The position numbers and the translations under genes were made by a program. This document shows, piece by piece, positions 1,952-57,996 of a stretch of 64,000 nt of DNA. Origin of the DNA: Thermoanaerobaculia bacterium (GTDB lineage: Bacteria; Acidobacteriota; Thermoanaerobaculia; Multivoradales; UBA5704); contig DATMER010000074.1 in NCBI GenBank assembly GCA_035556715.1, positions 3,737-67,736 of the forward strand, written 5' to 3'. Positions within the stretch are counted from its first letter, which is position 1, and each line of letters starts with the position of its first letter. The notes under the pieces are model-generated. The model was not told where the DNA came from, searched no databases, and saw only the letters and a list, made by a program, of their open reading frames with translations.

Positions 1952-4438
1952 CTACCAGACCGCCTCCCCCTCCCGCTTCGGCGCCCAGGCGAGGGTGAGG
2001 GCCCGCACCTCGATGTCCTGGCGCCGGGGCTTCAGGCCCAGGACCTCCAGCTCCTCGGCCTCGGGGTCCAGACGCTGCTCCAGGCGCTCGATCTCGGTCT
2101 CCAGCTCGGCATTCAGGTCCGTGAGCTTCTTCTTCACGGACTCGATGGTCTCCTCGGCGTGCGCCACGTCCTTGCGCTCCTGCATGGTCCTGCTCACGCC
2201 GCGCATCGCGCTGCCCGCCCGGCTGATATTGCCGTAGCTCAGCGTCTTGCGGCCGAAGAGCGCTCCCATGACCGCGGTGCCGGCGGAGATCACGGTGCTC
2301 CAGGTCTGGCTCGACGCCTGGGCCTCCTGCTTCTCCCGCGCCTGCTCGGCGCGGCGCAGGCGCTCCTCCAGTTGCGCCACCTTGGGACCGTGCTTGCGGC
2401 GCAGCGCCTCGACCTGGGCGTCGCGCCGCTCCCGCGCGAGGTCGCCCAGCCGGATGCGGAAATCGCGCTCGGTCTCGCCGGGCTGCGACAGCGCGCCGAA
2501 GTTGACGCTGCGGAAGACTTCCAGCCGCCGCGTGCGGTAGAGGGAGTCCTCCAGCCCCTTGCGCCAGCCGTCGTAGCTGCGCGCCCGCGCCGCCGGAGCG
2601 GGCAGCGGGCAGAAACGCGCTCCGGGGACCGGCTCCCGCTCCAGCGACTCCTTCTCCACCTCGACCGGCTCGGCCGCGTACCAGTCGACGTCCCCGGCCC
2701 CGGCGAGCGGCGCCAGCAGGAAGAGGTCCTCGGCATGGTCGATTCCCGTCTTCGGCTCCACGTAATGGACGGTCGCGGCGGCGTAGAGGTGGGGCTCGTA
2801 GACCACGCCGTCCGGCCGGGTGCGGACCGGCAGGTAGCTCTGCGGGATATCCGGTGGGAGCACGGGCGGCAGGCCGGCCTGCCCGTCCGAGGGGCGCGGC
2901 GCGGCGGGCGCGACCGCCGCGGCGGCCGGAGCGGTCGACGCCGCCGCTGCCTGCGGAGTGACACCCGCGGTGGGACCCTGGGAGGTCACGCGGCCAGCGG
3001 GCAATGCCTGCTTGCGCGGATCCATCAGACGCTTGAGCTCGGGCCGGGTGAGCGGGCCGCGCAGGTAGGACATGGCCCAGCGCGTCTGGAACACGGCCGG
3101 CGCCTCCTCGTGCACGTCGTGCAGGAAGAAGACCCGCTTGTCGAGCCTGGAGAGGATCTCCTCGATCCGCTTGCGGTCGAAGGTCCCGCCGGCCGCGGCT
3201 CCTTCCAATCCGTCCAGGAGGCGCTGCTTGTCGCGCTCGGTCTGCAGGCGTCCCAGGAACCAGGTGCCGACGTTGCCGAGCCCCTTGTAGTCGATGTCCA
3301 CCGGGTTCTGGGTGGCGAGCACGAGCCCGAGGCCGAACGCGCGCGCCTGCTTGAGGAGGGTCAGGAGCGGTCTCTTCGACGGCGGCTCCGCGACCGGCGG
3401 CATGAAGCCGAAGACCTCGTCCATGCAGAGGATCGCCCGCAGGCTGCTCGTGCCCGGACGGCTGCGCGCCCAGCCGAGCGTCTGGTTGAGCAGCAGGGAG
3501 ACGAAGAACATGCGCTCGCGATCCGAGAGGTGGGCGATCGAGAAGATCGAGACCCGCGGCTTGCCCGAAGGGGTGTAGAGCAGGCGGTCGACGTCCAGCG
3601 GCTCGCCGTGGAGCCAGGCCCCGAAGCCGGGCGAGCCGAGCAGGTTGTTCACCGCCATGGCCAGCTCGAAGCGCTCCTTGGCGGGATAGAACGACTCCAG
3701 GTCCATGACGCCGATGCGCTCCACCGGCGGCTTCTGGATCTGCTGGATGAGCGCCGCCAGGTCGAGCCCCTTCCCCTGCCGCCAGGCCGCGTCGAAGATC
3801 GTGGCCATCAGGATCGAGTCCCGCCCGCGGACCGGATCGGAGTCGATCCCCAGCAGCGAGAGCAGGCTCGCCACCAGGGTGGTGACCCGCTCGCGCAGGA
3901 GGTCGCCGTCCTCCACGATCCCGGGCGGCGGCGCGTCGAGCGAGGAGAGGATGGAAACCGGCAGCCCGGCCTCGCTGCCGGGGGTGTAGACGGCGAAGTC
4001 CGCGACCTCCTTCAAGCGCGCGATGCGCTCGCCGCTCTGCCCCCACCGTGCGAGCCCCTCGCGCCAGGTCTCGGCCTCCTTGGCCGCGAACGCCTCCGGC
4101 GTGAGCCCGGCGCGGGCGGCGGCGTTCGGGTCGATCCACGGCGCGAAGTCGGCCGGCCGCAGCTCCGGGAAGGTCAGGAGGAGGTTGGCCAGGTCCCCCT
4201 TGGGATCGATGACCAGCGCGGGGATGCGGTCGATCGCGGCCTCCTCGATCAGGGAGATCAGGAGCCCGGTCTTGCCGCTGCCGGTCATGCCGACGCAGAC
4301 CGCGTGGGTCAGCAGGTCGCGAGAATCGTAGAGGAGCGGGGTGGTTGACGCTTCCCCGCGCTGCAGGTCGAAGGGCCGTCCCAGGTAGAACGCCCCGAGC
4401 TTTTCGTATGCCGCGATGTCTTCCGCCATGGGCGGCAT
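1952..4438 (-). CDS. HerA-like / DUF853-DUF87 P-loop ATPase with C-terminal coiled coil
   Basis: Walker A VCVGMTGSGKTGLL; Walker B region LCMDEVFGF; the LVLATQNPVDIDYKGLGNVGTWFLGRLQTERDK segment is typical of the HerA/FtsK-like AAA family; coiled-coil tail (EIERLEQRL). Confidence 0.75.
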   Translation of the reverse strand: MPPMAEDIAAYEKLGAFYLGRPFDLQRGEASTTPLLYDSRDLLTHAVCVGMTGSGKTGLLISLIEEAAIDRIPALVIDPKGDLANLLLTFPELRPADFAPWIDPNAAARAGLTPEAFAAKEAETWREGLARWGQSGERIARLKEVADFAVYTPGSEAGLPVSILSSLDAPPPGIVEDGDLLRERVTTLVASLLSLLGIDSDPVRGRDSILMATIFDAAWRQGKGLDLAALIQQIQKPPVERIGVMDLESFYPAKERFELAMAVNNLLGSPGFGAWLHGEPLDVDRLLYTPSGKPRVSIFSIAHLSDRERMFFVSLLLNQTLGWARSRPGTSSLRAILCMDEVFGFMPPVAEPPSKRPLLTLLKQARAFGLGLVLATQNPVDIDYKGLGNVGTWFLGRLQTERDKQRLLDGLEGAAAGGTFDRKRIEEILSRLDKRVFFLHDVHEEAPAVFQTRWAMSYLRGPLTRPELKRLMDPRKQALPAGRVTSQGPTAGVTPQAAAASTAPAAAAVAPAAPRPSDGQAGLPPVLPPDIPQSYLPVRTRPDGVVYEPHLYAAATVHYVEPKTGIDHAEDLFLLAPLAGAGDVDWYAAEPVEVEKESLEREPVPGARFCPLPAPAARARSYDGWRKGLEDSLYRTRRLEVFRSVNFGALSQPGETERDFRIRLGDLARERRDAQVEALRRKHGPKVAQLEERLRRAEQAREKQEAQASSQTWSTVISAGTAVMGALFGRKTLSYGNISRAGSAMRGVSRTMQERKDVAHAEETIESVKKKLTDLNAELETEIERLEQRLDPEAEELEVLGLKPRRQDIEVRALTLAWAPKREGEAVW

Positions 4439-4439
4439 C

Positions 4440-5654
4440 CTACCAAGCGCGGGGGTCGAGCGCGTAGGGCAGCGGCGTCAAATTCTCGAGCCCGCCCGGC
4501 CCCAGGTGAACCAGGTCTTCCAGCCTCACTCCGTACTTCTCGGCGGGCTCGTACAGGCCGGGCTCCAGGGTGAAGACATCCCCCTCGCGGAGGACCCCTT
4601 CGGCTCCCGAGACCTTGCGGAAGACCGGCTGCTCGTGGAGGTCGAAGCCCACGCCATGGCCGAGATTGTGGACATAGCCGCGGATCGTCCTGGGATCGGA
4701 GATCGGAGTCGGGAACCCCTCGGACTCGAAAAAGGCGCAGACCTCCTCCTGGAGATCCCAGCCGCGGACGCCCGGCTTTGCCCTGCCGTGCGACTGCTCG
4801 AGAGCTGCGAGGACGAGAGCATGGGCGCGGCGCAGGGCCGGCGACGGCTCGCCGACGCAGAACGTCCGGGTACAGTCAGCGAACATCGCGCCTTTCGAGT
4901 AGATGTCCACGACGATCGGCTCTCCCGCCCGGAGCACGCGCTCCTGCGTGCCGGCCGAATGGGGCACGCCCCCCTCCTCCGCCGGCGCGACGATGTTGCC
5001 CTTGGGCTGTTCCAGACCGCGGGCGGCGAGGGCCTGCCCGATCTCGGAGCGCAGGCGGGCGACCGTCAGCCGCTCGCCTTCAATCCAGAGCTCGCCCTCC
5101 CGGACCGCGGCAGCGGCGAGGCGGACCGCCACCCGGCGCATCGCATCCATCACCCCCTTGGCGGCGGTGCGGATCGCGGCCACCTCGGCCGACGTCTTCT
5201 TCTTGCGCACGGCGAGGACGATCGGGTTGCCGGGCACCCAGGTCCAGCCCTTGCGGGCCAAGGCGGCGGTGGCAGCCTGGATGAGCCCGGCCTGGCCGTG
5301 GCCGGCGAGGGCGACGCGGCCCGGAGCGACTCCGGCCGTTCCCAGAGCCCGCTCTGCCACCCAGGCCATGACGTCGCCGGGCTCGGCGGCCAGGTTCTGC
5401 CACCGTGCCATGTCCAGGTGCTCGGGGGTGATCAGGCGGAGGCCGGTCGCCGCCGCCTCGTCCCGCTCCATGGGAGTCTGGTAGGCGAGGCAAGCCGGCC
5501 CCTCGGATGGAACAACGAGCTGGCTGTCGCCGAGGTGAACGTCGCCGACGAAGGGGGCGAGGTCGGGGTCCTGAGAAGACCGGGCAAGGACGAGCAGGGC
5601 ATTGCAGCCCCGCTCCTCCAGCCCGGCTCTCAGCTCAGTAAGGCGGTCCGACAC
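4440..5654 (-). CDS. pepP: M24 family metallopeptidase (Xaa-Pro aminopeptidase/prolidase-like)
   Basis: Pita-bread fold signature HNLGHGVGFDLHE with metal ligands (D, H, E); 1 bp from the neighbouring gene. Confidence 0.85.
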   Translation of the reverse strand: MSDRLTELRAGLEERGCNALLVLARSSQDPDLAPFVGDVHLGDSQLVVPSEGPACLAYQTPMERDEAAATGLRLITPEHLDMARWQNLAAEPGDVMAWVAERALGTAGVAPGRVALAGHGQAGLIQAATAALARKGWTWVPGNPIVLAVRKKKTSAEVAAIRTAAKGVMDAMRRVAVRLAAAAVREGELWIEGERLTVARLRSEIGQALAARGLEQPKGNIVAPAEEGGVPHSAGTQERVLRAGEPIVVDIYSKGAMFADCTRTFCVGEPSPALRRAHALVLAALEQSHGRAKPGVRGWDLQEEVCAFFESEGFPTPISDPRTIRGYVHNLGHGVGFDLHEQPVFRKVSGAEGVLREGDVFTLEPGLYEPAEKYGVRLEDLVHLGPGGLENLTPLPYALDPRAW

Positions 5655-25176: not shown

Positions 25177-25343
25177 CCTCACCCCCTGTCCCCCTCTCCC
25201 GTCTCCCACCCCTCCCCCGCCGGGAGAGGGGGAACGTATCTGGGGCCGCCGTGACCGAACGCGAGGCACGACAGCCTCAGTCACGTCCCCCCTCTCCCGG
25301 GGTCGGGCCGGCGGGAGACGGGAGAGGGGGACAGGGGGTGAGG
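25177..25343. repeat. Palindromic repeat family, full copy C
   Basis: CCTCACCCCCTGTCCCCCTCTCCC...GGGAGAGGGGGAACG...CCCCCCTCTCCCGGGG...GGGAGAGGGGGACAGGGGGTGAGG in the divergent region between the NicO-like gene and smc. Confidence 0.7.
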
Positions 25344-36634: not shown

Positions 36635-38163
36635 AGATCACCCGATTTGTCCTCTCGCGATTTGCCCTCTCGATAACCGCCCTGGCCCTGCTGACGGGCG
36701 CGGCCTCCGCGCAGGAGGCCAAACCGAAGCAGACCCCTCCCCCGCCCAAGCCGGCCAAGGAGATCCGCTTCCCTGCCTTTGAAGAGAAGACGCTCGCCAA
36801 CGGGCTGCGCCTGGTGGTCATCGAGCAGCACGAGACGCCGTCGCTCTCCGCGCAGCTGCTCTTCCCGGGCGGCAAGGTCCACGCTCCCGCCGGCAAGGCG
36901 GGTCTGGCCGACGCCACCGCCGCTCTGGTCCGGGAAGGGACCACGGCGCGCTCGGCGCAGCAGATCGCCCAGACCATCGATTCGGTGGGCGGTGTGCTGA
37001 CCACGGGCGCGAGCCTGGAGTCGGGCTTCGCCGGGGTGCGCGTGACCTCGGACCAGCTCGACCTGGCGCTCGACCTCCTCTCGGACGTGATCCTGCGCCC
37101 GAGCTTCCCGGCCGAGGAGCTGGAGCGCTGGCGCAACCAGACGCTGAGCGGCCTCCAGATCCAGCAGACGGACCCCGAGTACATCGCGGACGCGGCCTTC
37201 GTGCAGGCCGTCTACGGCGGCCACCCCTACGGGCAGCCGGCCACGGGCACGCCGGAGTCGGTCCAGGGCCTGACGCGGGACGACCTCGCCGCCTTCCACC
37301 GCCGGCAGTACGTGCCCAACGAGTCGATCCTGGCGATCGTCGGCGACGTCAAGGCGGCCGACGCATTCGCCAAGGCGGAGCGCTTCTTCGGCGCCTGGAA
37401 GCGGGGCGAGGAGTCGCGCATCCCCGCGGTCAAGCCAGCGCAGGCGCAGCGCCGGATCGTCATCATCGACAAGCCCGACGCCGTGCAGACGCAGATCCGC
37501 GTCGGCCAGATCGCGATCGGCTACCGCGACCCCGACCACTTCGCCGCGCAGGTCTACGATTCCGTGGTGGGATCGAGCTCCAACTCGCGCCTGTATGAGG
37601 AGGTCCGGCGCAAGCGGGGTTTGTCTTACGGGGCCTTTACGGACCTCCGGCTGCCATCCGAGCCGGGCTGGTTCCTGGCGAACACGTTCACGAAGACCGA
37701 GTCCACGGCCGAGGCCCTGGGGCTGGTGCTGGAGGTGCTCGAAGGCATGGGCAAGACGCCTGTCCCGGCCGAGGAGCTGGAGACGCGCAAGACCTACCTG
37801 ACCGGCGCGTTCCCCCTGGAGATCGAGACGCCGGACGGCATCGCAGGCAAGGTGCTGGAGGCCATGAAGTTCGGCTATGGCCGCGAGTACCTGGAGAGCT
37901 ACCGCGACAAGCTGGGCGCGGTGACTGCCGAGCAGGTGAAGAGCTTCGCCGGGCGCAGGCTCCAGCCGGACCGGATGCTGGTCGTCCTGGTGGGCAACGC
38001 CAAGGCCTTCGCCGCGGACGTCGAGAAGCGCTTCGGAAAAGCGGAGACGATCCCCATCGGCGAGGTGGACCTGCTGCAGCCCGGGCTGCGGAAGAGCCCT
38101 CACCCCCCGGCCCCCTCTCCCGCCTCCCCATCTCCCTCCCCGGGAGAGGGGGAGACTGAATAG
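36631..38163 (+). CDS. M16 family peptidase, non-catalytic partner subunit
   Basis: M16 fold (LANGLRLVVIE...) without HxxEH; start overlaps the upstream gene (ATGA). C-terminal PHPPAPSPASPSPSPGEGETE tail is encoded by palindromic repeat D. Confidence 0.8.
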   Translation: MKITRFVLSRFALSITALALLTGAASAQEAKPKQTPPPPKPAKEIRFPAFEEKTLANGLRLVVIEQHETPSLSAQLLFPGGKVHAPAGKAGLADATAALVREGTTARSAQQIAQTIDSVGGVLTTGASLESGFAGVRVTSDQLDLALDLLSDVILRPSFPAEELERWRNQTLSGLQIQQTDPEYIADAAFVQAVYGGHPYGQPATGTPESVQGLTRDDLAAFHRRQYVPNESILAIVGDVKAADAFAKAERFFGAWKRGEESRIPAVKPAQAQRRIVIIDKPDAVQTQIRVGQIAIGYRDPDHFAAQVYDSVVGSSSNSRLYEEVRRKRGLSYGAFTDLRLPSEPGWFLANTFTKTESTAEALGLVLEVLEGMGKTPVPAEELETRKTYLTGAFPLEIETPDGIAGKVLEAMKFGYGREYLESYRDKLGAVTAEQVKSFAGRRLQPDRMLVVLVGNAKAFAADVEKRFGKAETIPIGEVDLLQPGLRKSPHPPAPSPASPSPSPGEGETE

Positions 38164-38253
38164 CAGCTTTCTCGCCTCAAGAGAGGGTGCGCGGGGGCGC
38201 CCCTCTCCCGGCGAGGGTGGTCGGGGAGGCGGGAGAGGGGACGGGGGTGAGGG
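38097..38253. repeat. Palindromic repeat family, full copy D
   Basis: CCCTCACCCCCCGGCCCCCTCTCCC...GGGAGAGGGGACGGGGGTGAGGG between the convergent M16 and ubiB genes. Confidence 0.7.
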
Positions 38254-44832: not shown

Positions 44833-44998
44833 CCTCACCCCCTGTCCCCCTCTCCCATCTCCCACCCGGCCCCCGCCGGGAGAGGGGGAACGTGGCTGAG
44901 GCCATCTTGCCTTCGCTCAGGCACGACTGCCACAGATACGTCCCCCCTCTCCCGGGGAGGGTAGGGCGGGAGATGGGAGAGGGGGACAGGGGGTGAGG
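44833..44998. repeat. Palindromic repeat family, full copy E
   Basis: Near-identical to copy C (CCTCACCCCCTGTCCCCCTCTCCCATCTCCC...GGGAGAGGGGGACAGGGGGTGAGG). Confidence 0.7.
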
Positions 44999-48713: not shown

Positions 48714-49520
48714 ATGACCCGATTCCGTTGGGTATTGGCCTTCGTGCTGGCCGCCGGTTGCGCGACCGCTCCCCCGCCTCCGAAGCCCGCGGCTCTGCCT
48801 GCTCCTGGCACCGAAGACCTCTGGGCAGTCTACGCCGCGGCAGTGCGGACGGCGCAATACCCCGTCCAGGACCACATCTCCCGCGATCTGGTGCCGATCC
48901 TCCGCACCAATCCGGAGCTGCGTTGGGACCAGGGGCGTGTCCTGATGGCCACCTGGACGAAGAAGAAGTACTACGAGGGCAAGGTCGGCCAGCCCTACAC
49001 GCTTCCCAAAGGCGTCACCGTCTGGCTGACCGCCGTGCCCTATCTCCAGGAGGACTGCCGCGGCTGGGGCCTTCCTGCCGAGAAGCTTCCCCTCCGCATT
49101 GCCCAGTCGCTGGGCCTGCCGCCGCCGTCCGAGGGAGGCAACGACGCCTTCGTCCAGATGTGGGTCGATCCCCGCACGTTCTTCCGTCCCTGCTCCGATC
49201 CCGAGATCACCGACCAGGAGTGCCAGGTTTATCTCGACGGTGGGCCGGCCGACCGGACCGGCGATTGTCCGTGGTCCGCCGATCAAGTCTCCGGCGCCTT
49301 CGTCCGCGTCTCGGACAGCCACCTCGACTGGATGTGCGGCAACTGGAAGAGCACCTACACCGGGGACCCGATGACCAGCTATCCGTGGACCGCTCTCGGC
49401 TACACCTTCGACTGGGGGGACCTCCTCCACCCCTGGGGCCAGAGCGAGTATGTGGTGCCGCCGGGAACGACGGTGTGGATCGACAAGAAGATCTTCACGG
49501 CGGAGGAGTACTGCCGGTAG
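48714..49520 (+). CDS. Lipoprotein of unknown function
   Basis: MTRFRWVLAFVLAAGCATAPP lipobox; several Cys; its 3' end is duplicated downstream at 50195-50340. Confidence 0.6.
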   Translation: MTRFRWVLAFVLAAGCATAPPPPKPAALPAPGTEDLWAVYAAAVRTAQYPVQDHISRDLVPILRTNPELRWDQGRVLMATWTKKKYYEGKVGQPYTLPKGVTVWLTAVPYLQEDCRGWGLPAEKLPLRIAQSLGLPPPSEGGNDAFVQMWVDPRTFFRPCSDPEITDQECQVYLDGGPADRTGDCPWSADQVSGAFVRVSDSHLDWMCGNWKSTYTGDPMTSYPWTALGYTFDWGDLLHPWGQSEYVVPPGTTVWIDKKIFTAEEYCR

Positions 49521-49525
49521 TGCTT

Positions 49526-49822
49526 CTAAGATCCGAGGCGATACTTCCAATAGTCTGGATGGCGGCTGTGGTGCTTGACCACTAGGATGCGTATGTCGTC
49601 GCCTTCCTGGCGGTAGTAGATGCCATAAGGAAAACGCCGCATCACCAAGCGTCGCACATCATCCTCGACGACCCGCCAGCGATAGGGGGCGGCCAGGATC
49701 GCAGCAATGGCAGCGTCGAAATCGCGCAGGAAGCGACTGCCGAGCCCTGGCTCCCGGCCTTCGTAGAACCGGACGGCCTCAACCAACTCTCCCTCAGCGT
49801 CCGGATGGTAGGTCAGCTTCAT
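49526..49822 (-). CDS. relE: RelE/ParE-family toxin
   Basis: 98 aa; RelE/ParE-like conserved basic residues RRFPYGIYYRQEGDDIRILVVKHHSRHP. Confidence 0.8.
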   Translation of the reverse strand: MKLTYHPDAEGELVEAVRFYEGREPGLGSRFLRDFDAAIAAILAAPYRWRVVEDDVRRLVMRRFPYGIYYRQEGDDIRILVVKHHSRHPDYWKYRLGS

Positions 49823-50052
49823 CGGAGAGCTCGGCGCGCAGCCTCCATGACCTGCTCGTGAGACCGGCCCTCGACCGCCCCCGTAGCCAGCTCTCGATCC
49901 CGCCTCTTAGCCTGATCGACGGCTTCTCGCTCCTCAGCGCCGCCGCCAACTCCAGGCTCTTCATCGATGCTCTGCCAGAGCGCTTGCGCCAAGTCAATCC
50001 GATCTGACAGCGGTAGCGCCAGCACCTTCTGGGTAAGCTCTTCGTTCGACAT
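49819..50052 (-). CDS. Addiction-module antitoxin (TIGR02574-like)
   Basis: MSNEELTQKVLALPLSDRIDLAQALWQSIDEE; its stop overlaps the relE start. The upstream in-frame extension to 50154 is a duplicated 5' fragment of the DUF3782 gene. Confidence 0.6.
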   Translation of the reverse strand: MSNEELTQKVLALPLSDRIDLAQALWQSIDEEPGVGGGAEEREAVDQAKRRDRELATGAVEGRSHEQVMEAARRALR

Positions 50053-50194
50053 GGCTTCCAAAGTAAGAGGTCCCTGAGCTTGAGTCAAGCGAGCCTGTCT
50101 AGCACCAGACCTGAGCTCTTGGTCGGTCACGGAATCAATGTTCTCCCAAAGCACACCCGCAGTGACATCCTATCACGCGACGTGACCATCTCAC

Positions 50195-50340
50195 CTGGCA
50201 GCGCTCGGCTACACCTTTGACTGGGGGATGTCCTCCATCCTAAAGGACAGAGCGAGTACGTGGTGCCGCCGGGAACGACTGTGTGGATCGAGAAGATCTT
50301 CACGGCAGAGAGTACTGCGGAGGAGAAACCCAGACACCCT
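50195..50340 (+). pseudogene. Decayed duplicate of the 3' end of lipoprotein gene 48714..49520
   Basis: ~85% nucleotide identity to 49385-49520, with two 3-nt deletions; encodes ...VVPPGTTVWIEKIFTAE. Confidence 0.6.
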
Positions 50341-50351
50341 GACTCCGAAGC

Positions 50352-50398
50352 CGCGCGGGCGGGGGCTTCCTCTCCCGCGAAGCGGGGGAGGATAGAGG
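50352..50398. repeat. Left inverted repeat (IR-L) of STAND cassette
   Basis: GGGCTTCCTCTCCCGCGAAGCGGGGGAGGATAGAGGAGGGGGTC is ~42/47 identical to the inverse complement of 53286-53332. Confidence 0.6.
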
Positions 50399-50408
50399 AG
50401 GGGGTCTT

Positions 50409-50804
50409 CTACCCGTTCCCCACCCGGTTCCCGCTCCCCGCAATCTGGACGTTCGTGTTGCCGTCCCCGGTGATGTTCGCCGTCTGCTGGATCGAGACCC
50501 CCGGCCGGACCTCTTCCACGAGGCGAGCCAACTCGGTGAGAAGGTCGGGATCCGCCGCGAGCCGCTCCTCCAGGAACAGGCGCACGGCCGCCTGGGCATC
50601 CGGCTTCTCCGGCGCGGCCTCCAGCTTGGTCAGGGCCTTCTCCTCGGCGGGTCCGGTGAAACGCTGCTTGAGTGTCTGATACAGCTTGCCGGCTCCCCCG
50701 ACGGTCGCCTCCCCGATCTTCTTCGCACCGGCCTTGGCAGCTTCGACGAGATAGGGGGATAGTAAGGTTACGACGGCTGTTGCGACGGTCGCAGGATCGA
50801 TCAT
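50409..50804 (-). CDS. Small hypothetical protein sharing a terminal motif with the adjacent STAND ATPase
   Basis: 131 aa. C-terminal ITGDGNTNVQIAGSGNRVGNG resembles the STAND N-terminal SGEQNVNVQIQGDNNVVLLG. Confidence 0.45.
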   Translation of the reverse strand: MIDPATVATAVVTLLSPYLVEAAKAGAKKIGEATVGGAGKLYQTLKQRFTGPAEEKALTKLEAAPEKPDAQAAVRLFLEERLAADPDLLTELARLVEEVRPGVSIQQTANITGDGNTNVQIAGSGNRVGNG

Positions 50805-50839
50805 GAGGGGCTCCCTGGGTCAGGAGAAGGTTCGAAAGG

Positions 50840-53242
50840 CTACGGCGATTCGGGCGGTTGGATCTTCTGAAAGGTAGAGTCGATTGCCTCGATCAGCTCG
50901 GAATCGGGTTGCCGATCGTTCTGCTCCGAGAGTCTTAGATACAAGGAGGTCATCTTCGCCATTCCTTCCTGCAAAGTCGCCGGGCGGGCTAAGAAAAAAT
51001 GCAGATGCATTCGGACAGCCTCCTCCGAAAACTGCAGCGCCTTACCAAAATCACCGAACTCCTGTAGGCAACAGGCTAAATTGTAAAGAGAGAAGGCAAG
51101 ACTCAGCCTGAACTCTTCCAGGCCAGTTTGCGAGAGATCACGAAATACATCCACTGCCTCTGCCGCCACCTCTAGTGCCTCTTCGCGACGGCCAAGATCG
51201 CTCAGAATGCCTGACAGGATGGTGAGCGACTTTCCAAGGTCCGGACGGAACGCGTCCGGATGAGACTGCGAAAGCTCGCGATATACATCCACCGCCTCCT
51301 GCACTGCCTTGAGAGCCTCTTTATGATGGTCAAGAAGGCGCAGCCAGAGAGCCAGATTGCTGAGCGATGCCGCAAGCTGCAAACGAAATACGCCGGGAGA
51401 GGACTGCGAAAGCTCACGACATACATCCACCGCCGCCTGCACTGCCTCCAGCGCCTCTTTATAACGCCTAAGATCACCCAGACAGCTAGACAGGTTGATG
51501 AGCGACTTCCCAAGATCCGGAAGGAATGCGTCTGGGCGGGACTGTGCAAGCTCGCGCAAGATGGCCACCGACTCCTGAACAGCCTCCAAGGCCTCTTTGT
51601 GACGGCCGAAACCGCTCAGACGGTTGGACAGGGTAATTAGCGAAAGCGCCAAGTGCGGACGAGACGTGTCCTGCGGAAGCTCGCGATTTGCATCCACCGC
51701 CTCCTGCGCCAAATGCAGAGCCTCTTCGCTACGGCCAAGAGCGTTCAGACGGATGGACAGGTTGTTGATGAACCCGGCCAGCTCTTCCTTGTCACCTTCC
51801 ACCCGGAGCCTTTCCACCACCGCTGCCGTGAGCCTTGCGGCGACCTCGCGCAAGACCAGTGTCTTCTCCGGGAGCTGATTGACCAGCCTCAACAGAGCTT
51901 GCGTGTCTCCGACTCTTTCCGCCAGGCAATCGAGCCATTCCGCGGGCCTCCCATCCACGCCGCCGAAGTCCTGGGCCATCCGGATGACCACTGCGGTGAT
52001 GCGCTCCGGCGCGATGGCGGCCGCGCGGGCGACCGACTCCCTGGCCTTGCCGGGATCGCCGTCGCCGAGGGCGAGGAGGATTGCGGCCTCCCCTACGATG
52101 TCCGGAAGGATTGGTGCGACGTCCGCCCCTGCCCTGGGGAGCACCGCGTGCAGGATCTTGTAGATCTCTGGAGGATCACCGACTCTAACGTAGCGCAACG
52201 CTCTCGCCTCGACCTCGATGGCTTCTTCCGCCTGATCGCGCGTGAGCCCCTGGCAGAGGGTCGCATACGCCGCCATGTGGCAGACCAGGGACCGTGAGTG
52301 TTGCAGGCGGCTCTCGCCGATCCGCCCGATCCGGTTCAGCTCGTGCCGCCGGGCGACCTCGAAGGCTAGGTCGGACCTATTCAAGGTGAGGACGTGCGCG
52401 AAGCCCTCCCTTGCCGCAATCAAGCCGGCCATCAAAAGGAAAAGCGGCTCGCCGCCCCACTCCAGTTTTGCCAGGTCGCGGTCGAACCCACGGCCCTCCT
52501 CCGGCAGCCTCAGATCGCTCCCCGCCTTACTGAATACCTCTTCGAGGATGTTGCGCCGGTCCTCGACAGGCGCGAGAGGAGAGAGCACGTAAGGGCCATC
52601 GGCAGGATCGAGCTTGCGCTGGACGGCGGTATCGCCCCACCCTCCGCTCTGGAAGGCTTCCGCCCACCAGCCGCCTTTGGGATCGGCGTACCGCTCGAGG
52701 AGCAGGATACGGAGCTTGCCGCCAGCCGGCGGTGAGCTGGCGAGGTCGTCCAGCCAATCCCGCAGCCAGGGGAGTCGGGCAGCCGCGTAGTCCACTACGG
52801 CGAGGGTGGGGCGCGGCAGGCTGGCCGTGACGGATTCCAGGGACGGGGTGGCCTTCACGAAACCGGCGCTCCATCCCCGTAGGACTGCCTCCTCGCAGAG
52901 CTCCAGGGCGAGGCGTGTCTTGCCGCCTCCTCCAGGCGCCGTGACCACGCGGATGGACAGGTCCGGATCACCATCCATCCAGGACCAGAGGTCGGCAAGC
53001 TCCCGCTCCCGTCCCACGAGGGGGACCGCCATGGCGTAGGGGCTGAGGATCTCGGCGGCCTCGCCTGCCTCAACGGGGGAAGAGAGGGCTTCCCTCCGGC
53101 GGCCCCGGTAGAGCGTGAGGTCGAGACGGGACCTACCGAGGAGGACGACGTTGTTGTCGCCCTGGATCTGCACGTTGACGTTCTGCTCCCCGGAGAGGCT
53201 CGCGCTCTGGGAACGGCTCGGCGCGTCGGGGTCGGAGGGCAT
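50840..53242 (-). CDS. STAND-type P-loop NTPase with C-terminal TPR array
   Basis: Walker A VVTAPGGGGKTRLALEL; hhhhD Walker B LAVVD; at least 8 TPR units, several encoded by near-identical 126-bp nucleotide repeats. Confidence 0.75.
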   Translation of the reverse strand: MPSDPDAPSRSQSASLSGEQNVNVQIQGDNNVVLLGRSRLDLTLYRGRRREALSSPVEAGEAAEILSPYAMAVPLVGRERELADLWSWMDGDPDLSIRVVTAPGGGGKTRLALELCEEAVLRGWSAGFVKATPSLESVTASLPRPTLAVVDYAAARLPWLRDWLDDLASSPPAGGKLRILLLERYADPKGGWWAEAFQSGGWGDTAVQRKLDPADGPYVLSPLAPVEDRRNILEEVFSKAGSDLRLPEEGRGFDRDLAKLEWGGEPLFLLMAGLIAAREGFAHVLTLNRSDLAFEVARRHELNRIGRIGESRLQHSRSLVCHMAAYATLCQGLTRDQAEEAIEVEARALRYVRVGDPPEIYKILHAVLPRAGADVAPILPDIVGEAAILLALGDGDPGKARESVARAAAIAPERITAVVIRMAQDFGGVDGRPAEWLDCLAERVGDTQALLRLVNQLPEKTLVLREVAARLTAAVVERLRVEGDKEELAGFINNLSIRLNALGRSEEALHLAQEAVDANRELPQDTSRPHLALSLITLSNRLSGFGRHKEALEAVQESVAILRELAQSRPDAFLPDLGKSLINLSSCLGDLRRYKEALEAVQAAVDVCRELSQSSPGVFRLQLAASLSNLALWLRLLDHHKEALKAVQEAVDVYRELSQSHPDAFRPDLGKSLTILSGILSDLGRREEALEVAAEAVDVFRDLSQTGLEEFRLSLAFSLYNLACCLQEFGDFGKALQFSEEAVRMHLHFFLARPATLQEGMAKMTSLYLRLSEQNDRQPDSELIEAIDSTFQKIQPPESP

Positions 53243-53285
53243 GGATTCGGCTCGTCGGAGGTTTCTCTCAAGATATCACGCGCAG

Positions 53286-53332
53286 ATGTGCGGACCCCCT
53301 CCCCTGCCCTCCCCCGCTGCGCGGGAGAGGGA
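53286..53332. repeat. Right inverted repeat (IR-R) of STAND cassette / partial palindromic-family copy F
   Basis: GACCCCCTCCCCTGCCCTCCCCCGCTGCGCGGGAGAGGGAGCC; followed at 53336-53353 by GGAGGAGTACTGCCGGTGG, a copy of the lipoprotein 3' end. Confidence 0.6.
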
Positions 53333-53351
53333 GCCCGGAGGAGTACTGCCG

Positions 53352-53625
53352 GTGGCGCGAGAGATTGTGAGCGGCAGGCGCGCGGCGCACGCCCTGAGAG
53401 GGCGGCTTCCGCCCTTTAAAGGGCGGTGTCCGCCCTCTGAGGGACGATGCTCGCCCTTTGAGGGACGATGCCCGCCCTCTGAGGGGCAGCCTTCGCCCTT
53501 TGAGGGACGATGTCCGCCCTTCGAGGGACGGTCTCCGCCCTTCGAGGGGCGATGCCCGCCCTTTGAGGGATGGCATCCGCCCTTTGAAGGCGACGGCCGC
53601 CCCGGAAGGGCGAGCGCCTCCGCAT
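53352..53625. repeat. Tandem array of ~13 x 21-bp direct repeats
   Basis: Unit consensus CGCCCTYYGAGGGACGATGYC, each containing a CCCT-N3-AGGG mini-palindrome. ORFs on both strands here show heptad periodicity and are repeat artefacts. Confidence 0.75.
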
Positions 53626-53667
53626 GAGGACATCCGGCGACCGGAGAGGAGTTATTGCCTGTAGAGC

Positions 53668-54249
53668 CTAGAAGACGCGAGGCTGGAAGCTCTCGGGTAC
53701 ATCGAGCTGGAACTGGTCGTCGTGGATCCGGGCGAAGTAGAAGCCTTCCTGGAGCACCTTCTCCTGCAGCTTGCCAGGCGCGTGCACCGCGGCGATGATT
53801 CCGTAGACCTTCTTGTCCTTGTAGATGGGGAAGAAGTCGCGGAACTCCTGGAGAATCCTGTTCATCTGGTCGAGAGCCTCTTCGCGGAGGTGGCTCTTGA
53901 CCTCGACGACGAACATGTCGTCGCTGAAGTTGGAGAAGGCGAGCACGTCAACCTCCATGGAGTGGCCGTTGCGCTTGACCCGGACGCTGGGAGCGATCAC
54001 TTCCATGCCGAAGCGCTGGCTCAGGATCTTGGCCATGGATGGGAGAGCCAGGCCTTCCGTGAAGCTGCCGAACTTGTCGCTCAGGCCGCCGATCTGCCGC
54101 TTCAGCTCCCGCGTCTCCTCCCGTGCCAGCCGAGCGTACTCCTGCGCGGCCTCACGAAGCACTCGCTCGGTCTCCCGCTGGGACTCAGTCAGCTCGGCAT
54201 GCTTGACTGCCAGCGAAGCCATCAGGTCTCTGAGCTCTTGGTCGGTCAT
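53668..54249 (-). CDS. DUF3782-family PD-(D/E)xK-like protein
   Basis: N-terminal coiled coil (TESQRETERVLREAAQEYARL); EVDVLAFSN ... VVEVKSHL resembles a PD-(D/E)xK core. Start at MTDQELR (54249); the upstream extension to 54303 is shared with the 50093-50150 duplicate. Confidence 0.55.
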   Translation of the reverse strand: MTDQELRDLMASLAVKHAELTESQRETERVLREAAQEYARLAREETRELKRQIGGLSDKFGSFTEGLALPSMAKILSQRFGMEVIAPSVRVKRNGHSMEVDVLAFSNFSDDMFVVEVKSHLREEALDQMNRILQEFRDFFPIYKDKKVYGIIAAVHAPGKLQEKVLQEGFYFARIHDDQFQLDVPESFQPRVF

Positions 54250-54308
54250 GGAATCAATGTTCTCCCGAAGCGCGCCCGCCACTCGATGAGAACATCGTAA
54301 CACGGAAC

Positions 54309-56411
54309 CTACGCCGTCCGGACCCGCACCGCTACGAAGGTGACGTCATCGTTGGGGGGCTTGCCGCCGGTCCAGGAGCGGGCGGATTCGCCGAGGCCGG
54401 CGATGACCTCTTCGGGGCTTCGGGCTCCCAGCTCCTGGAAGCGCTGCCTCACCCGGGGATAGCCGAAGGGCTCCCCGCGGTCGTCCTGCAGTTCGGGCAG
54501 ACCGTCGCTCATCAGGAGCAGCATGTCTCCGGCGGCGATGGCGAAGCTGGCCTCCTGGTAATCAGACGCGAGCCCGCCCAGGGGCATCCCCTCCAGGGCG
54601 ATCTCCTCCACCTCCCCGGCGGCGGCGCGGAAGAGTAGGGCCGGAGGCATGCCGGCCGCGGCGATGGTAAGGGTCTTCCCGTCCACGCGGACGAGGGTCA
54701 GGCCCATGGCCATCCGGCCCAGCTCCATGCGCTTCACGGCGCCTGCGGCTTCGGTCAGGAACTCCCGGGGCGCGGACCTTCCGGAGTCGGCTGAGAACAG
54801 GCTCTTCACCACCGTCACCATGGTCCCGGCCCGGGCGCCGTGCCCCGTGGCATCGCCCACGGTTGCGGTCAGGACGCCCTCCTCCGACAGGTGGAAGTCG
54901 TAGTAGTCGCCCCCGACCTCGGTCGCGGTCTGCATGGACACGGCGATCTCGAAGCCGGGATGGTCGGGCAGGGTCTTGGGCAGGAGGGAGAGCTGGAAGG
55001 CGCGGGCCTCCTCCAGCTCCCGGGTCTTGCGCTCGTACTCGCGGCGCAGGAGCCGCTGCTCGGTCTCCTGCTCCACGAGCCTCTCCTGGTTCTCGCGCAG
55101 GTCGCCCGCCATCCGGTTGAACGCCGCGGCCAGGGCGCCGATCTCGTTGCGCGAGCGCACCGAGACCCGGGTGCCCAGGTCCCCCCCGGCGATCTTCTCC
55201 GCCCCTTGCTTCAGGACGCTGACGTCGCGGGTCATCCGGTTGGACAGCGGCAGGATGCCCACCAGGGCCAGTCCGATCAGGGCGAGGCCCCAGCCGAAGT
55301 TGCGCGCCGCGGTGCGCTTGACCTCTTCCAGGGATTGGCGGATCGGCCGCGCCACGCCCAGGGTCAAACCGCTGTCCGGGTCCTTCGAGGTGACGACCAC
55401 CCAGCCTTCGAGGATGTGCTGCGAGGAGGAGCTGTCGTTTCCGAGGTCGATCGGCAGCCCCTGCACCTTCTTCAGGTCCTCGTCGCTCGCGGCGTGGAAC
55501 TTGCCCTCGGCGTCGACTGCGAAGGGGATCTCGCCGCGCTCCCGGCGTGCCCTGCCGAGGACGCGGCTGAGGACCTGGTCGGGACGGACCCGGGCGCGGA
55601 CCCAGCCGACCACCCGGCCCTGGTCCTTCACCGGCGCCTCGATCTCCTTGCCGAGGAGGAGCCGGGTCTCCTTGCGCCGCTGCTCGAGCCGGGCCTCCAC
55701 CTCCCGGCGGCGCGCCTCGGCCTCGCGCATCTTGCGCTCCACCTCCTCCAGCTTCTCCGGATCGGGCGCGCCGGGATGGACGATGACGACCTTGCCCTCG
55801 TCGCCGGGCACGCCGGTCAGGTTCATGTCCGCGATCTCCTCGGCCGCGATCGCCGTGGCGCTTTCCACGTATTCCGGAATCTCCGCTCCTTGCGCCCTGG
55901 CGTGCTGCTGAGCCTTGCGGACCTCTTCCATGATCTCGCGGACGTCGATGACGATCGGAGGCGCGGGCGGCGCCGGGGGAGCGGGGAAGCCTGCGGAGCC
56001 TTCAGGAGCCGGCTCGGGGGCGGGGGGAGCTTCCGCGGGAGGGACCGGGAGCTCGCCGGAGACGGGATCTATAGGGGGCGCGGCCGGGGTGAACTCCAGC
56101 GAGTCCACGAAGGGCGCGGATTCGCCCATGGCCCGGAGCACTTCGGGCATCTCCGCCTCCAGCTCCTCCTCGACCTGCCGCTCCAGCAGGGTGGAGAGCG
56201 GGATCTCGCCCACCCTCTCGAGGCTGCGCCCGAGCTCCGCCCGGATCGTGGACATCCGGCCGTTCATCTCCTGCGTCAGCTCCGCGGCCTCGGCCTCCAC
56301 CGCCTGGCGCACGGCCCGCTGGGATGACGCATAGGAGTAGAGGACGATTCCGGTCAGCGGCACCACGGAGAGCAGGAGGAAGGCGACGACGAGCTGGGTG
56401 CGGATCTTCAT
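54309..56411 (-). CDS. Membrane-anchored HAMP-domain PP2C-type serine phosphatase (RsbU/SpoIIE-like)
   Basis: N-terminal TM; Pro/Ala-rich linker; second TM plus HAMP (NRMTRDVSVLKQGAEKIAGGDLGTR); PP2C motifs GGDYYDF, ATVGDATGHG, LLLMSDGLPE. Confidence 0.8.
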   Translation of the reverse strand: MKIRTQLVVAFLLLSVVPLTGIVLYSYASSQRAVRQAVEAEAAELTQEMNGRMSTIRAELGRSLERVGEIPLSTLLERQVEEELEAEMPEVLRAMGESAPFVDSLEFTPAAPPIDPVSGELPVPPAEAPPAPEPAPEGSAGFPAPPAPPAPPIVIDVREIMEEVRKAQQHARAQGAEIPEYVESATAIAAEEIADMNLTGVPGDEGKVVIVHPGAPDPEKLEEVERKMREAEARRREVEARLEQRRKETRLLLGKEIEAPVKDQGRVVGWVRARVRPDQVLSRVLGRARRERGEIPFAVDAEGKFHAASDEDLKKVQGLPIDLGNDSSSSQHILEGWVVVTSKDPDSGLTLGVARPIRQSLEEVKRTAARNFGWGLALIGLALVGILPLSNRMTRDVSVLKQGAEKIAGGDLGTRVSVRSRNEIGALAAAFNRMAGDLRENQERLVEQETEQRLLRREYERKTRELEEARAFQLSLLPKTLPDHPGFEIAVSMQTATEVGGDYYDFHLSEEGVLTATVGDATGHGARAGTMVTVVKSLFSADSGRSAPREFLTEAAGAVKRMELGRMAMGLTLVRVDGKTLTIAAAGMPPALLFRAAAGEVEEIALEGMPLGGLASDYQEASFAIAAGDMLLLMSDGLPELQDDRGEPFGYPRVRQRFQELGARSPEEVIAGLGESARSWTGGKPPNDDVTFVAVRVRTA

Positions 56412-56450
56412 CAGGGATAGTTTACGAGGAGATCTCCGGGAAGTTCGGAT

Positions 56451-56584
56451 CCCTCACCCCCTGGCCCCCTCTCCCATCGCACTCCCGCCCTCCCGGGAGA
56501 GGGGGAACCTTTCTTATGCCTCCTCTCTTTTCCCCCTCTCCCGGTGGAAGGGAGGGGATGGGAGAGGGGGCCAGGGGGTGAGGG
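56451..56584. repeat. Palindromic repeat family, full copy G
   Basis: CCCTCACCCCCTGGCCCCCTCTCCC...GGGAGAGGGGGCCAGGGGGTGAGGGG between the divergent phosphatase and M28 genes. Confidence 0.7.
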
Positions 56585-56607
56585 GTCCGTCGGGTAGACT
56601 GCCCTGA

Positions 56608-57924: not shown

Positions 57925-57996
57925 CCCTCACCCCCGTCCCCTCTCCCGGGGCGGGTGTGCTTGGGAGGAGCGGGAGAGGGGGCCGGGGGGTGAGGG
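57925..57996. repeat. Palindromic repeat family, short copy H
   Basis: CCCTCACCCCCGTCCCCTCTCCCGGGG...GGGAGAGGGGGCCGGGGGGTGAGGG (arms only, ~72 bp). Confidence 0.65.

Follow-up and report, generated by a model that had tools for sequence, protein, structure and literature searches.

A recombination hotspot between convergent lipoprotein and HAMP-SpoIIE genes of a Thermoanaerobaculia bacterium, probably shaped by successive displacement of gene 3′ ends

The DNA analysed here, to which we refer as the window, is a stretch of 64,000 nucleotides of contig DATMER010000074.1 from a Thermoanaerobaculia bacterium (phylum Acidobacteriota). We propose that its positions 49372-54308 are the variable content of a recombination hotspot, situated between two convergent genes, one coding for a lipoprotein and the other for a HAMP-SpoIIE phosphatase, and that this content was assembled by successive displacement of gene 3′ ends, a reading to which we would give a probability of about 0.6. 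An earlier note, made from the sequence of the window, had drawn attention to three occurrences of the same 18-nt gene-end sequence in this region and to the genes lying nearby: a toxin-antitoxin (TA) pair, a gene for a STAND protein flanked by an inverted repeat, and a DUF3782 gene. The features that it listed are all present, within 1-2 nt of where it had placed them (Table 1). It interpreted them as the outcome of successive site-specific insertions that regenerate an attachment (att) site.

Evidence for a hotspot comes from related loci (designated by L numbers), which were found by lipoprotein searches of genome and metagenome contigs, further ones being taken from contigs that code for proteins closely related to DUF3782, ParE or the lipoprotein. 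No two of 16 Thermoanaerobaculia relatives are alike in what they carry between the lipoprotein and SpoIIE genes, and the size of this island ranges from 0 to 8.8 kb; as an insertion hotspot, the locus is thus just what the note had taken it for. Empty sites, whose existence it had anticipated, were also found: in two distant relatives the genes overlap by their stops (L003) or the lipoprotein and SpoIIE matches abut (L011), and in L006 and L007 only an array of 21-bp units lies between the genes. Simple arrangements include ParE/antitoxin alone in L022, a gene end GAGTACTGCCGGCAGTAA running directly into the array in L031 (where the contig ends), one array unit and then DUF3782 in L018, and a hairpin followed by p131 (the gene for a 131-aa protein) and the STAND gene in L027. 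Others are composite: hairpin, array, 52-nt SpoIIE relic and DUF3782 in L004; DUF3782, lipoprotein relic and array in L005; DUF3782, a relic, a hairpin pair around a 63-nt STAND remnant and the array in L009; DUF3782, a relic and a STAND gene in L015 (amino acids 1-27 are without match and the contig ends); ParE/antitoxin, hairpins, p131 and STAND in L023; STAND, p131, a second STAND gene, a third NTPase gene, hairpin and array in L001; and DUF3782, a 19-nt relic, STAND, p131, a PKD protein gene, the array, a 110-nt SpoIIE relic and ParE/antitoxin in L016. In L029 a hairpin and a SpoIIE remnant are followed by an M28 peptidase gene, SpoIIE itself being deleted, and L017 has DUF3782, with SpoIIE mostly deleted and the left flank off the contig. 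The contig of L002 ends just past the lipoprotein gene. L018 was considered as a primordial compact allele; as one array unit is retained, a deletion derivative is more likely.

Ancestrally, the two convergent genes were separated by the array. It is found at the equivalent position in L005 and in L001 (19317-19575), L004 (1139-1431), L006 (4249-4476), L007 (2448-2668), L009 (1424-1701) and L016 (3050-3278), as about 10 units of 20-21 bp, each of them a small G/C hairpin, with a conserved position and a fast-evolving sequence; it is absent in distant relatives, and the lipoprotein open reading frame (ORF) of L006 reads into it. The modules themselves are exchanged between positions: L016 has DUF3782 at the lipoprotein side and TA beside SpoIIE, and the window has the reverse. 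Between these two loci, identity is 81% for the TA module, 83% for DUF3782, 87.5% for p131 and 75.5% for the STAND gene, and 79-83% for the flanks; this similar divergence of modules and flanks indicates that the modules have long resided here and been reshuffled locally, and are not an element of recent arrival.

Variation begins within the lipoprotein gene itself. The homologs are 75-85% identical at the amino-acid level in L001, L002, L004-L007, L009 and L015, and DNA identity is 80-84% with L016, L018, L022 and L023. Residues Y266 and C267 are invariant, and after this EYC motif at least 25 different tails, of 1-15 residues, exist among 29 close homologs. A Pfam scan found no domain in the lipoprotein.

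The end of this gene occurs three times in the window, as the current functional end A, with the terminal bases GAGGAGTACTGCCGGTAG at 49503-49520, and as two displaced copies, A′ and A″. A′ (50183-50318) aligns with 49372-49514 at 85% identity over 136 columns, with five indels relative to the working gene end that mark it as a pseudogene fragment, and A″ (53336-53358) is identical to 49501-49523 at 21 of 23 positions, the first 18 nt being exact and 3 of the next 5 matching. The 16-mer GGAGGAGTACTGCCGG has exactly two occurrences in the 64 kb, for an arithmetical expectation of about 3×10−5 exact second copies; the gene-end repeats are not due to chance.

According to the earlier note these would be three copies of one att core, but each of them precedes the downstream context of a different relative: L022 and L023 for A, L027 for A′, L031 and L006 for A″. 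At A, homology to relatives ends right after TACTGC at 49514, and CGGTAG, 5 nt and the ParE stop follow; this junction (one codon, TAG, 3-6 nt, ParE stop) is common to L022 and L023. A′ runs past TACTGC into a long tail, cagacaccctga plus ccgaagcc, as do the gene ends of L001, L002, L004, L027 and L029. Tail, stop and downstream bases read ...cccagacaccctga...ccgaagcc... and then come 16-18 nt, a hairpin and p131, which is exactly the arrangement of L027, the hairpin alone being found in L004 and L029. A′, since it continues into an L027-type tail, hairpin and p131, is a former native gene end that has kept the neighbours it had then. A″ shares with A 14 coding bases plus CGGT beyond them, and the array begins 20-45 nt past it; the same adjacency of GAGTACTGCCGG and array is seen at the intact gene end of L031, and a similar one in L006. 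The window-type gene end GAGTACTGCCGGT is absent from a set of 21 loci that did not include L031; L031 itself carries GAGTACTGCCGGC. Since the DNA that follows is of another allele type for every gene-end copy, the window can be regarded as a stack of alleles. The middle 18-mer is, furthermore, no discrete junction repeat but the last part of a gene-end duplication 143 nt long, a situation that the note itself had named as one that would speak against its interpretation, and which was thus encountered for one of the copies. Taking all loci together, relics of the lipoprotein end are 143, ~60, 19 and 23 nt long, and those of the SpoIIE end 110 and 52 nt.

Two other ideas about these copies were given up. 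A continuation of A″ into a relic of the ParE 3′ end was rejected, there being no similarity past 23 nt (score 18, shuffles 15.9 ± 3.2), and a gene conversion between A and A′, suggested by their common AGAAGATCTTCACGGC, was dropped, as the ‘KIFTAEEYC’ variant is an allelic class present in other homologs.

Displacement of the same kind affects the SpoIIE end in relatives. In L016 the array is followed by a SpoIIE 3′ end of ~110 nt including the stop, then by ParE/antitoxin and by the working SpoIIE gene; relic and working copy are 96% identical over 80 nt, and their last ~22 nt belong to different alleles (‘alpha’ versus ‘beta’). In L004 an alpha-type relic of 52 nt precedes DUF3782 (score 60, shuffles 20.1 ± 3.8). 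The beta end always adjoins a module (TA or DUF3782) and the alpha end always adjoins the array. The right boundary of the island is the SpoIIE stop at 54309, and not the DUF3782 gene, which had been taken for a fixed far boundary and which is cargo at either end in relatives. A scrap of SpoIIE end carried beside the TA module was also looked for in the window and in L023, and is not supported (p 0.1-0.97). The SpoIIE gene is deleted in L029 (9840-10053, ~40 nt left) and nearly wholly in L017, where a 37-aa HAMP fragment remains; the right ‘core’ flank is thus dispensable in some relatives.

The status of the DUF3782 gene as part of the variable content follows from its position, which is beside the lipoprotein gene in L005, L009, L015 and L016 and beside SpoIIE in the window, L004, L017 and L018. 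The window also keeps a trace of the former position. Next to the TA pair, 50111-50160 is a copy, 92% identical, of 54230-54279, the segment around the start codon of DUF3782 with sequence upstream of it, and the duplication continues in degenerate form over ~50097-50182. This remnant, B′/R′, corresponds to codons 1 to ~12, with the ATG mutated to GTG, and to the ~60-nt upstream region. At its junction with A′ stands the derived TGGCAGC that is also found in the relics of L009, L015 and L016 (TGACAGC in L005), where working genes have TGGACCGC; these common substitutions point to an old DUF3782 insertion at the lipoprotein end, common to these lineages. In the window, the TA module later overwrote the body of this lipoprotein-side cassette. 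The cargo nature of DUF3782, its 5′ remnant beside the TA pair and the displacement of the SpoIIE end in relatives had all been missed earlier.

From these comparisons we infer the following mechanism and order of events. DNA of another allele would pair with the conserved body of a flanking gene, used as a homologous anchor, and would carry its own version of the last bases of the gene together with its downstream neighbours, while its far end would be joined illegitimately. If this join fell upstream of the resident gene end, that end would be pushed inward and would decay as a relic; if it fell downstream, resident DNA would be overwritten. Four layers may be recognized on this basis. The newest would be the ParE/antitoxin module with the short gene end A (EEYCR and stop); the second would be the DUF3782 cassette now reduced to its first ~12 codons and upstream region (B′/R′); the third would unite p131 and the STAND gene with the earlier gene end A′, which still has its native hairpin; and the oldest would comprise the 23-nt relic A″ and the 21-bp array, followed by the DUF3782 cassette at the SpoIIE side.

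Such a process could also explain why the 18-mer recurs. It encodes the last selected residues (EEYC), so that the gene stays functional only when the junction falls beyond it, and the homology between alleles ends with this block. Since the tail is hypervariable after the invariant Tyr-Cys, surviving breakpoints would be expected to cluster just past the last selected codon, and a clustering of this kind would account for the recurring 14-18 nt without any att site. The limits of the modules likewise match what selection would keep: the TA module extends from a stop codon to a promoter-like TTGACT box, and DUF3782 to a GTTCCGTG(A/T)TA box.

Site-specific integration is the alternative closest to the earlier note. 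An unlinked integrase, or a Xer-type enzyme of the host, would use the lipoprotein gene end as attB; integrase-less integrative elements would have accreted in tandem, the 18-23-nt repeats being attL, a hybrid att and attR, and the attP of the recombinase would carry GGAGGAGTACTGC. The exact 18-nt repeat around 3.8 kb fits with this, as do the palindrome AGTACT within the core, the empty sites in relatives, and the exact 27-nt gene-end repeat around the DUF3782 cassette in L009 and L015. However, the 27-mer of L009 arises via two internal deletions in a longer relic, and the repeats in general are the tails of relics 19 to 143 nt long. The same modules are also present at the SpoIIE end, accompanied by SpoIIE relics, and the two ends have no detectable common sequence. 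Moreover, relics keep the downstream context of different alleles, which is not expected from an element-borne attP. Finally, no recombinase (integrase or transposase) was found in the 38 window ORFs scanned with Pfam, in four island proteins of L001 and L016 or among the gene calls of L016, which bears out what the earlier note had already remarked. All this makes site-specific integration unlikely in our opinion. What can be kept of the insertion scenario is that there were successive additions, each leaving a gene-end copy; the att site and its recombinase are not retained, as relic lengths vary and two unrelated genes are targeted.

Nevertheless, several points weigh against the 3′-end displacement that we favour. 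First, A and A″ bracket a 3.8-kb block as an 18-nt exact direct repeat, which would be left equally well by site-specific or staggered-cut integration, and displacement has to invoke a very short relic in this case. Second, the upstream boundary of the TA module is identical in four contexts, and independent illegitimate joins are not expected to reuse it unless selection on a promoter (the TTGACT box) defines it. Displacement leaves both the exactness of the A/A″ repeat and this identical boundary unexplained. Third, homology-facilitated illegitimate recombination is rare where it was measured, in species other than Acidobacteriota (PMC5361080, PMC3240628). In addition, the relatives are all metagenome contigs at 75-85% identity, among which no recent event was caught, and the search for a recombinase covered 38 ORFs of the window, four island proteins of relatives and the gene calls of L016, not the rest of the genome.

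Another possibility is that the island spreads through its own putative nuclease. The DUF3782/DUF8196 protein has a confident restriction-endonuclease-like fold with an invariant E..D..ExK motif; it would cut flanking gene ends in alleles devoid of the cassette, and one-sided repair would copy the cassette together with a substitute gene end, the cut end becoming the relic and the TA and STAND genes hitch-hiking. Such homing-like spread would agree with the presence/absence polymorphism at two positions of the locus, with the sharp limits of the cassette, whose upstream region is conserved even at unrelated loci, and with the large and patchy distribution of the family (2741 homologs; genomes of Microcystis have several copies each, at 55-58% identity). 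The layout itself, i.e. gene (5′ part), new end, nuclease ORF and old end, recalls the insertions of free-standing homing endonucleases in fungal mitochondrial genes. Against it, TA modules displace ends without a nuclease alongside (L016, L022, L023), the lipoprotein-side DUF3782 copy of the window was itself overwritten, and the two target gene ends have no detectable common motif. The footprint does not travel with the nuclease gene either: no gene-end duplications flanking DUF3782 were found at three other loci (L019-L021). We consider this explanation improbable. A stronger version, in which DUF3782/DUF8196 would represent a new kind of free-standing homing-like nuclease, targeting the 3′ ends of chromosomal genes and spreading with a substitute gene end, and in which its double-strand breaks would create the hotspot that captures TA and NLR-like modules, is a bold speculation to which we give little credit.

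The three unrelated DUF3782 loci just mentioned (L019 5001-5642, L020 5001-5600 and L021 5001-5618; ~60% protein identity) also bear on the region upstream of the gene. About 60 nt are conserved there, GTTCCGTG(A/T)TA ... GGCGCGC..GGGGAGAAC ... ATG, in the window (54250-54308), L019 and L020, and the leading GTTCCGTGATA box is present in L021 too; an extended -10 promoter with its leader is one possible reading, the end of an element another. Relatives differ in the copy number of a 21-nt tandem repeat that lies in frame within the coiled-coil part of DUF3782 (3.6 in L005, 1734-1808; 2.6 in L009, 910-963; 2.4 in L018, 2240-2289). A sequence search of the PDB with DUF3782 added nothing, and the literature on this family was found to hold two incidental mentions only.

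A last alternative would do without foreign alleles, the region having been rearranged purely internally, within one lineage, by tandem duplication and deletion, with replication slippage or template switching as the cause. The relics of L009 and L015 do show deletions at microhomologies (CTCCTC), many alleles resemble deletion derivatives (L009, L017, L018, L029), and A and A′ are both of the ‘KIFTAEEYC’ class. But the tails and downstream contexts of the relics belong to different allele types; in L016, relic and working copy of SpoIIE have different alleles for their terminal 22 nt next to 80 nt that are 96% identical; the R′/A′ junction substitutions are common to four other lineages; and the G+C content of the island modules (0.54-0.64) is below that of the flanks (0.65-0.72). 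A purely internal origin is thus hard to credit.

The inverted repeat around p131 and the STAND gene consists of two arms of 44 nt, IR-L (50363-50406) and IR-R (53293-53336), which are 89% complementary. The earlier note regarded it as framing a STAND cassette; the repeat does exist, but its arms are not cassette ends. Each is a hairpin resembling repetitive extragenic palindromic (REP) elements, and such a hairpin stands at the IR-L position in L004, L009, L027 and L029, with a variant in L023. It is single, just after the lipoprotein stop, in L004 and L029, both of which have no STAND gene, and it lies beside the DUF3782 gene of the unrelated locus L019. IR-R is identical at 43 of 43 positions to L009 1272-1314, and the hairpin pair of L009 encloses the 63-nt STAND remnant only. 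Conversely, the STAND genes of L001 and L016 do not have this REP-like hairpin around them. The idea that the repeat forms the termini of a STAND cassette was rejected on these grounds. A second REP-like hairpin, cccctgggagcgctggcgtctcgccggc ... gccggcgagacgccagcgctcccagggg, recurs in the hotspot and also right after DUF3782 at an unrelated locus; its sites are L001 19180-19290, L002 10860-10957, L017 1-130 and L023 680-760 (the last two as reverse complement) and L020 ~5605-5640. Rfam returned sub-threshold chance hits only, and a scan for promoters and terminators added nothing.

A process of the kind proposed here is already known, and the locus is a good new example of it. Displaced orphan 3′ ends are found in rhs and type VI secretion system (T6SS) effector loci, and the cause put forward for them is homology-facilitated illegitimate recombination (Kirchberger et al. 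2017, PMC5361080; the work cited there for C-terminal displacement is that of Jackson et al. 2009). As in the arrays of rhs, contact-dependent inhibition (CDI) and T6SS genes, a constant gene body has alternative 3′ ends, the incoming end comes with cargo, old ends are stacked downstream as orphans and there is no integrase. Orphan 3′ fragments here also keep their former downstream DNA (that of L027 for A′, that of L031/L006 for A″, and the array beside the SpoIIE relics of L016 and L004). In contrast to these systems, the displaced ends are a few non-functional codons of lipoprotein or phosphatase tails and not toxin domains, the cargo consists of TA, NLR-like and nuclease-fold genes and not of immunity genes, the anchor can be either member of a convergent gene pair, and the host belongs to the Acidobacteriota.

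Resemblances with other systems are more limited. Integrase-dependent islands at the 3′ ends of genes or tRNA genes have in common with our locus an element-side copy that restores the gene, direct repeats bounding the inserts and the possibility of stacking; they differ by what we did not find here, an integrase, and by our inconsistent repeat lengths, two unrelated targets and allele-specific downstream context. In the defence hotspots flanked by core genes (cDHS) of Pseudomonas aeruginosa, the position is likewise fixed and the content differs in nearly every genome (PMC10250203), and exchange is thought to use the flanks (PMC10250203). Unlike them, the present island is small, gives no meaningful defence match with PADLOC and is distinguished by gene-end relics. 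Integron cassette arrays are also made of small, near promoter-to-stop modules, added at one end and pushing back older ones, but no IntI, attI or attC was found in our case, where the repeats are gene-end relics. An integron-type imperfect palindrome common to the 3′ ends of the modules was not found either, and the ParE stop is 5 nt from the lipoprotein stop.

If displacement is the right explanation, the locus is a legible record of an accessory-gene hotspot built without dedicated mobile-element machinery, the history of which can be read directly because each layer keeps a gene-end relic and the downstream context of its source allele. It would show 3′-end displacement outside polymorphic-toxin loci as well, in ordinary genes, in both partners of a convergent pair and in the little-studied Acidobacteriota. 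It also provides a warning: repeated ‘att-like’ sequences at gene ends are insufficient to infer site-specific integration. Two parts of the cargo are worth testing, namely the widespread but patchy DUF3782/DUF8196 putative nuclease gene (Acidobacteriota, Cyanobacteria) and an NLR-like/Bell-like gene pair with a common amyloid-type motif.

Table 1. Features of the hotspot and its flanks (window coordinates)
Feature	Position	Strand	Remarks
Lipoprotein gene, left conserved flank	48714-49520	+	intact ORF; lipobox LAAGC; last residues EEYCR, then stop
A, current functional gene end	49372-49523	+	holds 23-nt core 49501-49523 and the short EYCR-stop tail accompanying the TA module
ParE toxin gene (ParE_toxin)	49526-49822	-	PF05016, 37.6 bits (cut-off 23)
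Antitoxin gene (Unstab_antitox)	49819-50052	-	PF09720, 30.4 bits (cut-off 23.3)
TA module	49526-50090	-	ParE, antitoxin and ~38 nt upstream, up to TTGACT box
B′/R′, DUF3782 cassette remnant	50097-50182	-	92% core match; alignment with upstream ends of eight DUF3782 copies
A′, displaced lipoprotein 3′ end	50183-50360	+	143-nt coding relic with indels, long tail, TGA 50340-50342, native downstream bases
IR-L, REP-like hairpin	50363-50406	.	inverted repeat; native position just past old lipoprotein stop
p131, 131-aa protein	50409-50804	-	inside inverted repeat; no Pfam match
STAND/NLR-like protein, 800 aa	50840-53242	-	P-loop NTPase and TPR: Pfam TPR_12, TPR_10, weak AAA_16
IR-R, second REP-like hairpin copy, inverted	53293-53336	.	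inverted repeat
A″, 23-nt relic of lipoprotein end	53336-53358	+	directly upstream of array
21-bp hairpin-unit array	53379-53609	.	TRF, ~9-11 units
DUF3782/DUF8196 gene	53668-54249	-	Pfam; coiled coil and PD-(D/E)xK nuclease fold
Conserved region upstream of DUF3782 gene	54250-54308	-	cargo at SpoIIE side
HAMP-SpoIIE (PP2C) phosphatase gene, right conserved flank	54309-56411	-	Pfam and synteny; ‘beta’ type 3′ end

Regarding the cargo, the ParE and antitoxin genes are adjacent with a 4-nt overlap, as in type II TA modules of the ParE family. The segment 49531-50090 is the part that matches L016, where the copy adjoins SpoIIE; L022 and L023 match as well. The p131 protein, for which PADLOC gave no match, has a copy in L001 (88% at the protein level) and one in L016 (87.5% at the DNA level), and STAND homologs are present in L001 (two copies), L016, L023 and L027. 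For the NTPase domain of the STAND protein, the match to AAA_16 or nSTAND_NTPase5 is weak and below the cut-off. Related motifs are found at the C-terminal end of p131 (NTNVQIAGSGN, in QQTANITGDGNTNVQIAGSGNRVGNG) and at the N-terminal end of the STAND protein (NVNVQIQGDNN, in SGEQNVNVQIQGDNNVVLLG), conserved in the window, L001 and L016, and on the p131 side only in L023. To judge from these motifs, the two proteins resemble a pair formed by a Bell-like effector and an NLR that share a bacterial amyloid signalling motif. In the Bell/NLR pairs described by Dyrka et al. (bioRxiv 10.1101/2020.01.06.895854), a protein of ~130 aa similarly has a short C-terminal motif that recurs where the neighbouring P-loop/TPR protein begins; the order in the window is STAND and then p131, and Acidobacteriota are not mentioned by these authors. 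PADLOC gave a marginal DrmD match for the STAND protein (E 0.0024) and none for the other island proteins. The label of ‘defence island’ is thus suggestive, by resemblance of the ParE TA pair, the nuclease-fold protein and the NLR-like/Bell-like pair to defence genes.

Elsewhere in the window, a G/C-rich palindromic intergenic family, CCCTCACCCCC..CCCTCTCCC..GGGAGAGGGG..GGGGGTGAGGG, REP-like or MITE-like (miniature inverted-repeat transposable element) and with a core resembling the 44-nt arms described above, occurs at 1780-1950, 25177-25343, 38094-38253, 44833-44998, 56446-56589 and 57938-57996, with ~60-170 nt matched per site. Two possible accessory or defence-type genes lie on the minus strand, one for a HerA-like (DUF87) protein of 828 aa (1952-4438) and the other for a putative endonuclease of the Uma2 family (9743-10504). 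They are accompanied, at 10501-16069 on the same strand, by a class II lanthipeptide cluster with a LanM-type synthetase (DUF4135 and LANC_like, 12875-16069) and a C39-peptidase ABC exporter (10501-12708).

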